Under the pieces are notes generated by a model that did not search any database, had not been told where the DNA came from, and saw only the letters and a program-made list of their open reading frames with translations. DNA of 64,000 nt from positions 13,567-77,566 of the IMG/VR virus record IMGVR_UViG_2974703250_000001; one strand, written 5' to 3'. Every line of letters starts with the position of its first letter. The stretch's first letter is position 1. The position numbers were made by a program, and so were the translations under genes. Below are positions 35,240 to 59,318 of the stretch, one piece after another. This DNA is from a virus (Duplodnaviria; Caudoviricetes).

Positions 35240-36100
35240 ATGGCCGTTCATCTGAGGGCTTACAACGAGGAACTGGGCACCGTCCGTGATGTGGCGGTGC
35301 CCTTTCAGTTTCCGGGTGGCGAATGGGACTTGAAGCAGGTCCATGAGTTCGACCAACGGGTGACATGGGTTGCGGACGTTCGCGGTGCTGACCTTAACGA
35401 CCTAATGGCGGCAGCTCTGCTGTCTAACGTCGCTGTGCAGCGTGGCGAGGACTTCGTTCTGATGATTCCGTACTTGCCAGCGGCCCGTGCGGACCGGGGC
35501 CACCCGACCGGGTGTGTCCCGTACGGCAACTTCATCTCGTCAATGGGCGCGTCGGGGATCATTACCGTTGATCCACACTCGCGCCGCATGCCGGACTACC
35601 TGGGATTCCAGGCTTCTACCGTCACGGCGCTGGACCCACTGCCGCTGCTGGACAGGGCTTTGGAGAGCCAGGGCCACTGGCGGTACGACGCAATCATTGC
35701 GCCAGATAAGGGCGCTGTGGATCGCGCTGGGGTCATCGCTAAGCATTACGGGCTAGACCTGGTTGTTTGCGACAAGGAACGCGATTTCGACACGGGCAGG
35801 ATCACCAAGTACAAGGTGCCGATCCTGCCTCGTAGCGGTAAGTACCTGGTGGTCGATGACATCTGCGACGGAGGCGGGACTTTCGCGCTGCTGGCTAGTG
35901 AGGCGCTTATCTCTAAGCCCAACCTAGACCTTTGGGTTACGCACGGCATTTTCTCCGGTAAAGCAACCATGCTGCCGAGTTACTACGGGCGCATTATGAC
36001 GAGTGATTCACACCCCGGCCATAACCGGGTCGGTGTCGCTACGTCGATTGTTCCCACTTTCACCTATATGCACGAAACGATGGTTAAGGGGCTTAAGTGA
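35240..36100 (+). CDS. PRPP-synthetase-like protein; candidate ADPR-PP synthetase (Adps) of NARP1
   Basis: [55 protein letters not shown]. Confidence 0.88.
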
Positions 36101-36513
36101 GCACGAACTATTCGCCTATCCAGTGGCCGGTGGCCGAGACGCTGCTAGAGCGGCAGGCGATCTTCATTTATGAGGGTGCCCGGTTGCAGGCGGCAGCCGT
36201 TAACGCGCCGATCATTCCTGAGCCGTGGGACAAGCGCGATGAAGCTTTCAAGACGCAGTTCCTTGGTATCACGCAGAAGATGATGGGTCCGGACCGCTTC
36301 ACTGATCCGGAAGCCGCCCACGATTCGTGGTGGCGCGCATACGAAGCCTTGGGGTGGAGCTATGGCCCCGTTCGGGATACGGAAGCTAAGACGCACCCGG
36401 ACATGGTTCCTTTCGCTGACCTGGGCTGGGAGGAACGCATGAAAGACGCGGTGTGGATAGCGCTGTGTGAAATCGCCCGGCAGTGGATCGTGGAGGAAAA
36501 TCCTTATGAGTAA
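36097..36513 (+). CDS. Stand-alone RyR-domain protein
   Basis: AHDSW...[23 protein letters not shown]...ERMKD matches the RyR repeat consensus (H..W....GW.YG..RD...K.HP.L.P...L...K..D). Confidence 0.82.
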
Positions 36514-37990
36514 GTTTGCACCCGTTGCGGCGCTCTTTCAGACAGACGCGTACAAGCTGGGCCATATCGACCAGTACGCGCTTAGCGGGGAAGTGACCCG
36601 CGTCTATTCCAACTGGACTAACCGGAAGTCGCGCCTGCCCGGCGTGGATAAGGTGGTCCACTTCGGATTGCAGGCGTATATCCAGGCCCACTTGGTGGAC
36701 GCGTTCGAGCCGTTCTTTAAGACGCTCGACGAGGACCAGGTAGCGGAGCTTTACGAGGAACGGGTAGCGCAGATTCTCGGGCCGGACGCGGCTAAGAGTA
36801 TCGGCAGCGACCACATTCGGAAGCTGCACCGTCTGGGGTATCTGCCGCTGCGGTTTAACGCGGTGCCGGAGGGTACGGCGGTGCCTATCGGGGTGCCGTC
36901 GTTCACGGTGGAGAACACGCACCCGGACTTCTACTGGCTGACGAACTACGTGGAGACCGGCCTGAGTGCCGGGGTGTGGCAGGCCAGCACGTCCGCGACC
37001 ATTGCCCGCGAGTACCGCAAGGTGCTTGACGCGGCTGCCAAGCGGACTGGCGCTGATCCGGCGGGCGTCGACTGGCAGTGCCACGACTTCTCTTACCGGG
37101 GCATGTCGTCGCACGAGTCGGCGGCGTCGTCGGGGGCCGCGCACCTGTTGAGCTTCACGGGTACGGATTCGCTGGTGGCGCTCGACTGGATTGACCGCTA
37201 CTACGGCGGCGAGTTCGTCGCGGGCTCGGTCCCGGCTACGGAGCACTCGGTGATGTGTACCGGCATTGAGACGGTCGGGGAGCTTGAGACGTTCAAGCGG
37301 CTGCTGGACCTGTACCCGACCGGCATCGTTAGCGTCGTCAGCGACACGTTCGACCTTTGGGCCGTGCTGACTCGGTATTTGCCGACGCTCTACGGCCAGA
37401 TCGTGGGCCGGGACGGCAAGCTGGTTATCCGGCCCGACTCGGGCGATCCGGAGAAGATCATTTGCGGTGATCCCAACGCGCCCAAGGGTTCTAACGAGTG
37501 GTGGGGCGCTCTTAACCTGCTTTACGACACGTTCGGCGGGGTTAAGAACGACGCGGGCTACATCGAACTGGACTCGCATGTCGGCCTGATCTATGGCGAC
37601 TCGATCACGTTGGATCGCGCTAAGAGCATCACTGATCGCATGGAGAAGCTGGGCTTCGCGTCGTCAAACGTGGTGTTCGGCGTCGGGTCGTTCACGTATC
37701 AGCACAACACGCGTGACACGTTCGGGTCCGCGATGAAGGCGACGTGGGCCGAGGTCGACGGCAGGGGCTACAACCTGCTCAAGAACCCGGTGACCGACGA
37801 CGGCACCAAGAAGTCCGCGACCGGGCGTCTGGCAGTGCTGCGCGACCTGCAAGGGGAGCTGGTGCTTGTCCAGAACGCAGACCAGTACGACGAGTTCGCA
37901 TCGGAACTGCGTCCGGTTTGGGAGAACGGAAAGTTCGTCCTGAGGCAGTCATTCGCCGGGGTCAGGGGCACTTTAGCCCAGCAGAGCTAG
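36506..37990 (+). CDS. NAMPT-like protein; candidate nicotinamide ADPR-transferase (Namat) of NARP1
   Basis: [68 protein letters not shown]. Confidence 0.9.
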
Positions 37991-38090
37991 ACGGTTAAGT
38001 CCGGGTTTCCGGACGTTTTCGTGGGCATTGGGTACATGCGACGTACTGTTGTGTGTACCCAACAGCCCGACGAAAGAAAGGGGGTTGAAA

Positions 38091-39029
38091 ATGACTCTGA
38101 CTCTTACCGCAATGCGCGGTTATCCCGGCTCGGGGAAGTCGACTACGGCGCGCACTGTTGCTAATAACACGGGCGCGGTGGTGGTTTGTCGTGACGAGCT
38201 GCGGAACATGCTGCACGGCGTGTACTTCAACGATGGTTCTAACCATCCTAAGTCGCCTAAGGACTTTGAGGATGAGGTAACCATTGCGGAGCGTGCGCAG
38301 GTCGCAGCCTTTCTCAAGGCTGGCGTTTCGGTAGTTGTCGACGCTACGCATTTGGAGCCGTCTTACTTGCGTAAGTGGGCGAAGATGGCCTCAATGTACG
38401 GCGCTGACTTCGTGCGGGTCGATCACATCACGCCGGTTGACGAGTGTCGTAAGCGGGACCACGCCCGGATGCTCGCTGGTGGCCGGTACGTGGGTGACAA
38501 GGTTATCGAGAAGATGGCTAAGCGTCACCCGGTGAAGAACTGGCCGGATATTCAAGCGCCACCGACGTTCACGCCGGAGCCGGTTGAGTGGGAGCCGGGC
38601 CTGCCTACGGCAATCATTGTCGATATCGACGGCACGGTGGCGCACATGACGGGGCGTTCACCTTACGACTACAGCCAGGTCCATACCGACGTGGTTGATG
38701 AGCAGATTCGATGGCTGGTCAACACGGTTGAGTCCGAAGGCGTGTTCGTCCTGTTCGTGTCGGGCCGGGATGACGAGTGCCGGGAGGCTACTGAGAAGTG
38801 GCTTGCGGAAAACGGCATCGTCTACGACGAGCTGTACATGCGGCCTACCGGCGCTAAGGACAACCACGGGAACAAGCTGCCCGACTACCTGGTGAAGTCC
38901 GACCTGTTCGATAAGCATATTCGCGGCAAGTACAACGTGCGGTTTGTGCTCGACGACCGGGACCAGGTTGTGAACCTGTGGCGTGCGCTGGGCCTTAAGT
39001 GCCTGCAAGTTCAGCCGGGCGACTTCTGA
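38091..39029 (+). CDS. pnk: Polynucleotide 5'-kinase/3'-phosphatase (T4 PseT-like)
   Basis: GYPGSGKS P-loop, RDELR, VVVDAT; HAD motif DIDGT, SGRD, LDDR. Confidence 0.92.
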   Translation: MTLTLTAMRGYPGSGKSTTARTVANNTGAVVVCRDELRNMLHGVYFNDGSNHPKSPKDFEDEVTIAERAQVAAFLKAGVSVVVDATHLEPSYLRKWAKMASMYGADFVRVDHITPVDECRKRDHARMLAGGRYVGDKVIEKMAKRHPVKNWPDIQAPPTFTPEPVEWEPGLPTAIIVDIDGTVAHMTGRSPYDYSQVHTDVVDEQIRWLVNTVESEGVFVLFVSGRDDECREATEKWLAENGIVYDELYMRPTGAKDNHGNKLPDYLVKSDLFDKHIRGKYNVRFVLDDRDQVVNLWRALGLKCLQVQPGDF

Positions 39030-52295: not shown

Positions 52296-52367
52296 GGGGT
52301 TATAGCTTAGTTGGTAAAGCACCGGTCTTGCACACCGGCGTCCGGGGTTCGATTCCCCGTTTCTCCA
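52296..52367 (+). tRNA. tRNA-Ala(TGC)
   Basis: CCGGT-CTTGCAC-ACCGG; G3:U70 present; two U-U mismatches in the acceptor stem. Confidence 0.82.
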
Positions 52368-52381
52368 CTTAAGGGGGTTCG

Positions 52382-53071
52382 GTGTCGGAGGTTAAGAGCC
52401 TTTATGGCACGCGAACGTCGAAATACTGGGAGGCCGCTCCGGCGAAGATGGACGCGCTGAATCTGCGCATGATCTTCCCGTCGAGCAACCGTTACGGGTT
52501 CCCTGATCTAGAGCTGTGTGATTGGCTGCCGGATTGCTTGGGTGCGTGGCATCTGCCGCGTCAGCGGGACCGGGCAGCGGCCAACAACGGCGCTGTGCAT
52601 TTCTTTTTGGATGACTACCGCTTTGAGACCGCGTTTACGAGCCCTGAGAGGACCGTGGGTCGAGTTTTGGCGGTGGGTGGGGCACTGACGCCTGATTTCA
52701 GTCTGTGGCGCGATATGCCGCGTGCTGGGCAGCTCTGGAATGTGTACCGGTCGCGCTGGTGTGGTGCGTACTGGCAGAGCCAGGGCGTGAGGGTCATTCC
52801 TACGGCCTGCTGGGCTCGCTCAGACACTTTTGACTTCTGTTTCGATGGACTACCGCAGGGCGGGCCGGTGGCGGTCTCAGCGCTTGGTGTGCGGGCGAAC
52901 GGTGAGGATCGCGGCGTGTTCCGCGACGGCCTGGCCGAGCTGGTCGCGCGTGTCCGGCCTTCGTGCATCTTGAGCTACGGACGCCTGGTGCATGTCGACG
53001 AGCTTGATCTGCCGCCGGTTCGTGAGTATCCGACCTTTTGGGATGAGCGTCGTAAGGCGGTTAAGGCTTAG
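52382..53071 (+). CDS. DUF4417-family protein
   Basis: HFFLDDYRFE, TPDFSLWRDMP, QLWNVYRSRW.G.YWQ..G..VIPT..W, CFDG.P. Confidence 0.82.
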   Translation: MSEVKSLYGTRTSKYWEAAPAKMDALNLRMIFPSSNRYGFPDLELCDWLPDCLGAWHLPRQRDRAAANNGAVHFFLDDYRFETAFTSPERTVGRVLAVGGALTPDFSLWRDMPRAGQLWNVYRSRWCGAYWQSQGVRVIPTACWARSDTFDFCFDGLPQGGPVAVSALGVRANGEDRGVFRDGLAELVARVRPSCILSYGRLVHVDELDLPPVREYPTFWDERRKAVKA

Positions 53072-53080
53072 GGGGTTCTG

Positions 53081-53431
53081 GTGGGCGGTCGCGGTGGTGG
53101 TGGCGGTGGCCCGGCTAGTTCCCGGTCGTCAACGGTGACGTTGTATCACCGGACGAGTGCGAGTGCTGCGCGGTCGATTGTGGATCGTGGGTTCAATCCG
53201 GAGTTTCGGCCTGGCACTAACAAGTCTTATCGTGATGAGAACTCGCAGTATGGGTTCTTTACTAAGACGGTTAAGGGTCAGGAGGGATACGGCCAGAATG
53301 TTGTGGCTGTGGAAGTCCCTAAGTCTGCTGTGCAGCGTGATCCGTGGTCGGGTCATGTTCGTGTGAAGGTGGAAGACCTTAGAAACGCAAACTTCCGGCA
53401 CTATGAGGGTAAGCGCCGGAAGAAGCGGTAG
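53081..53431 (+). CDS. MGGRG-leader protein with ADP-ribosyltransferase-like core
   Basis: LYHRT...SIVDRGF...YGFFT...YG..VVAVEVP resembles the H-Y-type ART fold. Confidence 0.55.
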   Translation: MGGRGGGGGGPASSRSSTVTLYHRTSASAARSIVDRGFNPEFRPGTNKSYRDENSQYGFFTKTVKGQEGYGQNVVAVEVPKSAVQRDPWSGHVRVKVEDLRNANFRHYEGKRRKKR

Positions 53432-53432
53432 T

Positions 53433-53507
53433 GCCGTCATGGCTGAGTGGTTAGGCGTCGGACTGCAAATCCGGCTTATCCCGGTTCGATTCCGGGTGGC
53501 GGCTCCA
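53433..53507 (+). tRNA. tRNA-Cys(GCA)
   Basis: TCGGA-CTGCAAA-TCCGG; U discriminator plus CCA. Confidence 0.9.
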
Positions 53508-58847: not shown

Positions 58848-59318
58848 ATGGGTGGACGCGGCGGCGCAGGCGGCGGGCGTGGTACCGGCGGTAACAGTAA
58901 CCCCGATTTGGACTCTAAGGATTCCTTAGACAATACCGCTGAGCAAACCTCAAACCCTAATGCCGCTGCTGACGCGCTAGGTCTCACTGGCGCGGATAAA
59001 GAACACTTTGTGAACGGTGCCAATGCTGAGGGCAAGCGGATTCCGCGCATTGGCCGCGATGAGAGCCAAGTGATTAAGCCAGCGGACGTGTCTAAGTTGG
59101 TCGCGGCCCATAAGGCCGCTGTGGTTGCGTATGAGCGCAAGCATGGCCGCTATGCCGCGCATGCCTACGCACGCGGCGGTTACTGGTCACTGTTGCGGGT
59201 TATCCGTACGGCTATGGCTGTGGGTGCCATCGCTACGCAAGCGCCAGCCGCGCCAGCTCTGGCAGCCGCTAACACGGCTCTCATGGCCGCGTACTGGACA
59301 CACAGGGCAGGCCGCTAG
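58848..59318 (+). CDS. Isolated rightward MGGRG-leader protein
   Basis: Starts MGGRGGAGGGRG; GAGGGG RBS; the only rightward ORF of note among the leftward operons. Confidence 0.6.
   Translation: MGGRGGAGGGRGTGGNSNPDLDSKDSLDNTAEQTSNPNAAADALGLTGADKEHFVNGANAEGKRIPRIGRDESQVIKPADVSKLVAAHKAAVVAYERKHGRYAAHAYARGGYWSLLRVIRTAMAVGAIATQAPAAPALAAANTALMAAYWTHRAGR

Follow-up and report, generated by a model that had tools for sequence, protein, structure and literature searches.

A DUF4417 gene and a GGRG-tagged, ADP-ribosyltransferase-fold protein of a mycobacteriophage as parts of a putative effector cassette

Why should a small phage protein that opens with the peptide MGGRG be encoded directly behind a gene of the DUF4417 family, and what might one do for the other? 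The question is raised by a 64-kb stretch of DNA (hereafter, the window) that forms the right-hand part (genome positions 13567-77566) of a 77,566-bp cluster L mycobacteriophage genome, the closest relatives of which are Chaser and Douge. In the window, a DUF4417 gene with a GTG start (52382-53071, + strand; 229 amino acids, aa) is followed on the same strand, after a spacer of 9 nucleotides (nt), by an open reading frame (ORF) of 116 aa, also with a GTG start (53081-53431; hereafter, the cargo gene). The cargo protein has the N-terminus MGGRGGGGGGPASSRSSTVTLYHRT, beginning MGGRGGGGGG, and its body is predicted to adopt a minimal ADP-ribosyltransferase (ART) fold (hereafter, mini-ART). The pairing of DUF4417 with such a start recurs across phages and bacteria, and the bodies behind the tag are exchanged.

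The tag and its association with DUF4417

The DUF4417 protein matches Pfam PF14386 over nearly the whole profile (positions 2-182 of 183; E-value 4.8e-60; 202.6 bits against a cut-off of 28.9) and also phrog_940 (profile positions 139-366 of 388). To profile the tag around DUF4417, we assembled a viral set of 81 loci (80 IMG/VR DUF4417 loci and the window) and, on both strands, took as tagged any ORF of at least 50 aa in which G-(G/K)?-R-G follows the start codon; an ORF was counted as near when it lay within 1.2 kb of the DUF4417 end and on its strand. A total of 86 tagged ORFs were near DUF4417 versus 7 elsewhere (468 kb; ~747 kb of strand length), and six of those seven were chance matches to the relaxed form MGRG. 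Tagged neighbours were detected at 74 of the 81 loci and in 13 of the 16 DUF4417 clusters defined at 70% identity, with the variants MGGRG, MGKRG and MGRG across loci. A bacterial set of 80 independent loci (actinomycetes, Chloroflexota and gut bacteria) gave the same picture, with a tagged ORF nearby at 56 of the 65 DUF4417 loci counted. Most of the bacterial tagged ORFs overlap the DUF4417 stop codon by 1 nt, and some loci have two to four tagged genes in tandem.

The association was also seen from the side of the cargo. DUF4417 is encoded directly upstream of tagged mini-ART homologues on all seven contigs available for four homologues, and on none of the four contigs of two homologues with a different leader. 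No description of the DUF4417-tag pairing was found in the literature; the publications found to mention DUF4417 did so without the tag or a partner, and matches to MGGRG were unrelated.

The proteins behind the tag are diverse. Sorted by their bodies, the tagged proteins of the viral set make up 18 unrelated families, several of which are toxin domains. The window pair has the same build as the rest: the tagged gene adjoins DUF4417 on its strand, a linker rich in Gly and Ser follows the tag, and the body family is distinct from the 17 others. In cluster A mycobacteriophages, the gene following DUF4417 encodes a VIP2/C3-type ART (ADPrib_exo_Tox, PF03496, E-value 4e-22), a papain-fold glutamine deamidase toxin (Gln_amidase, PF15644, E-value 1e-13), a peptidase-like protein or a DUF3626-like protein, and the cargo bodies of this cluster also match the C-terminal ends of PHROGs annotated as "head maturation protease". 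The swapping is evident at close range, as there are 118 phage pairs in which the DUF4417 proteins are at least 85% identical and the cargo is unrelated. The DUF4417 tree shows 2 changes of tag variant (G3 or K3) against 11 changes of cargo family. In Chloroflexota, MGGRG-tagged proteins of 600-970 aa are encoded directly after DUF4417 (L096:3670-6279, L121:3672-6425, L129:3727-6624 and L149:3687-6050). Ten tagged proteins of Chloroflexota and actinomycetes (234-966 aa) were compared with Pfam and PHROGs; eight of these, of 629-966 aa and all from Chloroflexota, had no match, and one actinomycete protein of 421 aa had sub-threshold matches only.

In the window, the tag (M-G-G-R-G-G, the first six cargo codons; 53081-53098, + strand) is supported by its conservation among homologues and by codon variation. 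M1, G2, R4 and G5 are invariant among eight close cargo homologues whose nucleotide sequences differ, and over 72 tagged genes the codons of the tag differ synonymously (Gly as GGC, GGT or GGA; Arg as CGN or AGA). Such variation of the codons while the peptide is kept indicates selection on the peptide. Selection on the nucleotide sequence of the tag was ruled out, given that both CGN and AGA serve as Arg codons and that the Gly codons vary in their third positions. A wrongly called start or a low-complexity artefact was likewise ruled out by the conservation of the peptide together with the codon variation, and by the starts annotated in relatives; the same cargo start is annotated in the closest phages (Chaser gp124, Faith1 gp116), and a GGGGG ribosome-binding stretch precedes the GTG start of the cargo. 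The tag is also rare: only two ORFs in the whole 77.6-kb genome start with MGGRG (the cargo gene and 58848-59318), and in its six-frame translation of 155,128 residues GGRG is found 12 times. A preliminary description of the locus had stated that DUF4417 genes are often followed by MGGRG-starting proteins with unrelated bodies, which the counts above bear out, and had proposed that the N-terminal GGRG is a recognition tag. As judged from sequence comparison, the peptide does behave like one: it appears portable, it is kept while its codons vary, and it seems to track DUF4417 and not the cargo.

The junction of the two genes varies among lineages. In Bugsy (gp2/gp3) the DUF4417 ORF and the tagged gene overlap by 94 nt, and at cluster A loci (e.g., L013:653-2250) the DUF4417 ORF extends 30-60 codons past the ATG of the tagged gene, out of frame over the glycine-rich linker. 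Behind a ParB-DUF4417 fusion in Streptococcus phage SpGS-1, the annotated ORF of gp30 (L086:3057-3803) contains ...TLGGGRGAN... internally, 64 codons in, which may reflect a mis-called start or a lineage-specific variant of the tag.

The two proteins and their genomic setting

The tag of the window cargo is followed by a low-complexity, Gly/Ser-rich linker (GGGGPASSRSS; 53099-53131, + strand), which reaches to the first strand at residue 18 and the equivalents of which are much longer in cluster A phages. The body (residues 18-110; 53132-53431, + strand), assigned from its match to phrog_6170 (E-value 5e-60 for the cargo) and from structure modelling, ends in a basic tail, KRRKKR, and the protein has the motifs GF, YGFFT, GYG and VVAVEV. 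In an AlphaFold 2 (AF2) model of the cargo (predicted local distance difference test, pLDDT, 81), a flexible N-terminus precedes a compact domain that starts at residue 18; the mean pLDDT of residues 1-10 is ~51, which indicates that the stretch with the tag is flexible. The best Foldseek matches of the model are Tpt1/KptA, followed by TreTu (an Rhs toxin), PARP10 and ExoA (probability 0.9-0.99). An exhaustive VIA search gave diphtheria toxin (Z 8.2, 21% identity), TreTu (Z 7.0), KptA (Z 6.7) and ExoA (Z 6.5), and of the 100 chains at Z of at least 2 the top 50 nearly all belong to the ART superfamily. Thus, an ART fold of the cargo is supported by its structure model, in agreement with the resemblance to an ART core that had been pointed out from the sequence.

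At the sequence level, the window cargo had no Pfam match, and the cargo family profile had none among PDB sequences even at an E-value of 10. One relative (P0140) barely passes the PARP model (26.9 versus 26.7 bits), and the UniRef name of the LeBron and JoeDirt homologues is "ADP-ribosyltransferase". For comparison with the H-Y-E (or R-S-E) catalytic motif of the ART superfamily, conservation was read from the cargo family, in which His23 and Tyr70 are each found in at least 90% of the sequences and T25 is invariant; E78 varies and Asp87 is the best-conserved acidic residue, with equivalence to residues of known ARTs drawn by range offsets only. His23, Tyr70 and Asp87 are candidate active-site residues, and the predicted fold suggests that the cargo may use nicotinamide adenine dinucleotide (NAD+).

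A profile search of 1.8 billion representatives found the cargo domain in other contexts: as the C-terminal module of a head-protease/MuF-like protein (P0131; phrog_1522, E-value 2e-59), and at the C-terminus of connector-like proteins (P0130, P0135 and P0137) and of a ParB-C protein. All of the stand-alone versions read start with MGGRG. The fusion of the mini-ART domain to head and connector proteins fits published work in which phage ARTs are described as often being head-packaged and injected (PMC9503650; PMC7302621). Separately, four untagged mini-ART relatives (P0138, P0142, P0144 and P0158; loci L178-L181) start with MPKRR... or have GNPxHDxxGKF near the N-terminus, and no DUF4417 was detected in their fetched contigs; these N-termini may be a second kind of leader.

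The phage has NAD salvage and RNA repair genes of its own at window positions 35240-39029, which encode PRTase-domain, RyR-domain and NAPRTase/NAMPT-family proteins and a T4-type polynucleotide kinase-phosphatase (PNKP; HAD_PNKP + AAA_33). The preliminary description had linked an NAD-consuming cargo to this salvage pathway. The NAPRTase/NAMPT-family gene is indeed present, as circumstantial support, but the cassette elsewhere carries deamidase-like, peptidase-like and unassigned-family bodies; with such non-NAD cargo, the cassette is not tied to NAD.

For the DUF4417 protein, the AF2 model (pLDDT 86) is a beta-alpha barrel. Among sequences 38-83% identical to the window protein, the invariant residues are H73, D77, D78, Y79, R80, E82, S107, Y122, R123 and R125. 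The first seven of these, with the nearly invariant D105, lie just past the barrel strands, and the helix that comes next contains Y122, R123 and R125; in the model, the invariant polar residues after the strands look catalytic. The VIA search gave ArcTGT (1iq8, Z 9.2), DpdA (7ui4, Z 9.2), QTRT2 (Z 9.0) and bacterial TGT (Z 7.7), with generic TIM barrels next at Z up to 7.5 and a margin under the best TGT of less than 2. Foldseek against the PDB gave nothing at an E-value of 0.001 or better, and TGT entries recurred at E-values of ~0.03-0.08. The sequence comparisons were negative: Pfam TGT (PF01702) had no match anywhere in the phage genome (versus 14 of 14 control genomes with one), hhalign of DUF4417 with a TGT profile of five bacterial tgt genes gave a probability of 0.05% and no usable residue alignment, and the DUF4417 family profile had no match among PDB sequences even at an E-value of 10. 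The structural alignment to DpdA ends at DUF4417 residue 217 and DpdA residue 257, just past the nucleophile Asp256, and no conserved acidic residue was found around residue 217 of DUF4417 (E215 and D221 vary). The TGT-like barrel suggested for DUF4417 in the preliminary description therefore appears to stand at the level of the fold, at which the four best matches belong to the TGT family with generic TIM barrels close behind, and not at that of the sequence.

DUF4417 is often fused to ParB-fold NTPase domains (e.g., P0187 and SpGS-1 gp29), and DpdA requires the ParB-like DpdB and acts on DNA (PMC10164549). The DUF4417 genes of L5 and D29 are among the matches (H38 and H45). Two longer DUF4417 proteins (P0183 and P0185; 413-457 aa) have extra C-terminal domains of ~200 residues, one with a CxxC...CxxC zinc-ribbon-like stretch.

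Both protein genes of the window are tightly packed within a tRNA array. The tRNA-Ala(tgc) gene predicted by ARAGORN (52296-52368, + strand) ends 13 nt before the DUF4417 start (gap 52369-52381), and tRNA-Cys(gca) (53433-53507, + strand) begins 1 nt beyond the cargo stop codon (gap 53432). With the genes packed in this way, the mRNA ends would be set by tRNA processing. A scan for promoters and terminators gave counts not above those of shuffled sequence. The preliminary description of this layout, a DUF4417 gene and then an MGGRG-starting protein of 116 aa between tRNA-Ala and tRNA-Cys, was correct in every detail when compared with Pfam, the ORF list and ARAGORN. The two ORFs are in the same frame, separated by one TAG and three codons, and a read-through or fusion product was considered and rejected. 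Close relatives have spacers of 8-10 nt (start offsets 9, 10 and 11), and because the length varies among them the shared frame is a coincidence.

The second tagged gene (58848-59318, + strand; 156 aa, MGGRGGAGGGRG...), taken from the ORF list, matches phrog_6176 and lies 5.8 kb away from the pair, as a lone + strand gene surrounded by leftward ones. Within cluster L the gene is conserved, and Faith1 gp134 retains the tag; in Chaser, gp142 (L084:9184-9585) keeps the C-terminal 98 residues and has a different, untagged N-terminus. A search of the ESM Atlas with the second tagged protein gave sub-threshold leads only, among which a colicin-like cluster ranked first (0.76).

What DUF4417 might do with the tag

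Given what is established (the genes and their families, the two folds, the association of the tag with DUF4417 and the swapping of cargo), the reading that we favor, with moderate confidence, is a two-part cassette in which DUF4417 acts on the shared tag of swappable effectors and so routes them for delivery. The constant part would be DUF4417, an enzyme-like barrel protein, and the variable part directly behind it would be an effector carrying the tag Met-Gly-(Gly/Lys)-Arg-Gly and a glycine-rich linker. In the window phage, the effector would be the mini-ART domain of ~95 residues with its basic tail, and the second, unrelated tagged protein would be another. The tag would most likely serve as the common handle by which DUF4417 binds, processes or modifies its cargo, and the purpose would most likely be to have tagged proteins delivered to the next host along with the virion or its DNA. 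Other phages would deliver the same effector domains by direct fusion to head or connector proteins. The earlier interpretation of the pair as enzyme and tagged cargo is upheld in part: the association, the ART fold, the barrel and the portable tag are supported, the TGT likeness is confined to the fold, and the tie to NAD is circumstantial.

Several observations weigh against the cassette reading. A physical link between DUF4417 and the tag is putative, and the adjacency could stem from a common insertion hot spot or from expression timing. The tag abuts or overlaps DUF4417, and simple linkage may explain why it tracks DUF4417 on the tree. The window cassette is located not among head genes but in the tRNA array, at a distance of 11.6 kb from the right end of the genome, and we found no virion proteomics for any tagged protein. 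The window cargo is matched by no Pfam ART model and is without a conserved catalytic Glu. Finally, the second tagged gene persists in Chaser even though its tag has been lost there.

The main rival reading, which we regard as unlikely, takes the tag for an address read by the capsid, scaffold or portal, while DUF4417 acts separately on DNA as a ParB-assisted, TGT/DpdA-like enzyme near an effector hot spot. The frequent ParB fusions of DUF4417 fit this reading, as does DpdA, one of the best fold matches, which works on DNA with its ParB-like partner (PMC10164549). The frequent packaging of phage ARTs in the head (PMC9503650), the position of the cluster A cassette at the left genome end close to packaging genes, and the 5.8 kb between the second tagged gene and DUF4417 also speak for it. 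A signal read by the capsid, however, needs no adjoining DUF4417, and the link of the tag to DUF4417 is very tight across phyla, extends to non-viral genome records and includes the 1-nt overlaps. Moreover, within one cargo family DUF4417 is found next to the tagged members but not the untagged ones.

It is rather improbable that DUF4417 is a general chaperone or holding factor, which would bind the tag and prevent a range of toxic cargo from harming the producing cell or from becoming insoluble in it. The 1-nt overlaps suggest translational coupling and thus comparable quantities of both proteins, the upstream DUF4417 gene stays constant while the toxins beside it vary, and adaptors of the type VI secretion system (T6SS) with the domains DUF1795, DUF4123 and DUF2169 likewise mark the effectors of that system. 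On the other hand, the barrel strands are followed by invariant His, Asp, Asp, Tyr, Arg and Glu residues of catalytic appearance, a single DUF4417 can be accompanied by up to four tandem cargo genes, and one DUF4417 would also have to serve a cargo gene 5.8 kb distant.

A more specific proposal, which takes up the transglycosylation put forward in the preliminary description and which we consider highly doubtful, is that DUF4417 is a TGT/DpdA-like transglycosylase with a protein nucleophile. The tag, through the guanidinium of Arg4 or the alpha-amine of Gly2 freed by removal of Met, would be joined to the sugar C1' of DNA or RNA, so that toxins would be packaged and injected as passengers of nucleic acid. 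All four of the best structural matches of DUF4417 are TGT-family base-exchange enzymes, the ParB-DUF4417 fusions have a parallel in the DpdB-DpdA pair, the tag is found strictly at the N-terminus with a flexible linker behind it, and N-terminal amines are nucleophiles at C1' in Fpg/Nei and T4 endonuclease V. Opposed to this are the lack of a sequence relation to TGT (PF01702 and hhalign, above), the small Z margin over generic TIM barrels, the absence from DUF4417 of the Zn site and of a conserved acidic residue near the region aligned with DpdA Asp256, and the fact that no adduct has been reported.

That the cargo is a stand-alone RNA repair enzyme of the Tpt1/KptA type for the surrounding tRNAs, with a functionless Gly-rich start, is very improbable: the best Foldseek matches, the location inside the tRNA array and the PNKP of the phage would fit, but the alignment is confined to the C-terminal NAD lobe of KptA (residues 91-180), the N-terminal RNA lobe that carries part of the Arg-His-Arg-Arg catalytic tetrad is absent from the 116-aa protein, the cassette lies outside tRNA arrays in every other lineage, and the tag is conserved at the peptide level.

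If the favored cassette reading is right and DUF4417 reads the tag, one domain family and a five-residue peptide would constitute a general phage route for interchangeable effectors, used by phages such as L5 and D29, by streptococcal prophages and by many gut phages. A tag behind DUF4417 would then be a search rule for phage toxins and host-takeover proteins, a widespread DUF would gain a testable function, and the tag could possibly be used as a portable means to load chosen proteins into phage particles. In the window phage, the mini-ART protein and the second tagged protein would be likely host-directed effectors.

Comparison with known systems

The capsid targeting sequence of phage T4 is a short N-terminal peptide on unrelated internal proteins and on Alt, one of them an ADP-ribosyltransferase, and the proteins that bear it are packed into the head and injected. 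The GGRG tag is similar in being a short N-terminal peptide common to unrelated proteins that include a predicted ART. Unlike the tag, the T4 signal has no dedicated neighboring enzyme and is removed by the prohead protease.

Regarding the exchange of domains, the cassette resembles the MuF polymorphic toxins of temperate phages and the head-effector fusions of actinobacteriophages, in which interchangeable toxin domains (VIP2-type ART, deamidase and peptidase) stand behind a constant phage part (PMC9503650; PMC7302621). The window mini-ART domain is itself fused to the head-protease/MuF-like P0131 and to connector-like proteins. The constant part of the cassette differs in that it consists of a five-residue tag and a linker, with a separate DUF4417 gene alongside. 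The window cargo, moreover, stands alone, and the fusion is found only in relatives such as P0131.

The TGT, ArcTGT and DpdA enzymes come closest to DUF4417 in fold, at Z 9.0-9.2 over 157-170 residues. DpdA depends on the ParB-fold NTPase DpdB (PMC10164549), a parallel to the frequent ParB fusions of DUF4417. In contrast to these enzymes, DUF4417 has no sequence similarity to them, no Zn subdomain and no conserved Asp at the position of the nucleophile, and it is smaller (229 versus 370-580 aa).

The window cargo has the same predicted fold as TreTu (7zhl) and a similarly small size (Z 7.0 over 85 of 113 residues). It is also close to the catalytic domain of diphtheria toxin (Z 8.2, 21% identity), with cargo His23 matched by offset to His21 of the toxin. 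Unlike minimal ART toxins such as TreTu, diphtheria toxin and Arr, it passes no Pfam ART model, and its third candidate catalytic residue is not a conserved Glu.

As for gene order, the cassette is reminiscent of the T6SS effector adaptors (DUF1795, DUF4123 and DUF2169), since in both cases a conserved DUF gene directly upstream marks diverse effectors. The T6SS adaptors, however, are part of a secretion machine and bind N-terminal domains that are larger, whereas DUF4417 is enzyme-like and phage-borne.

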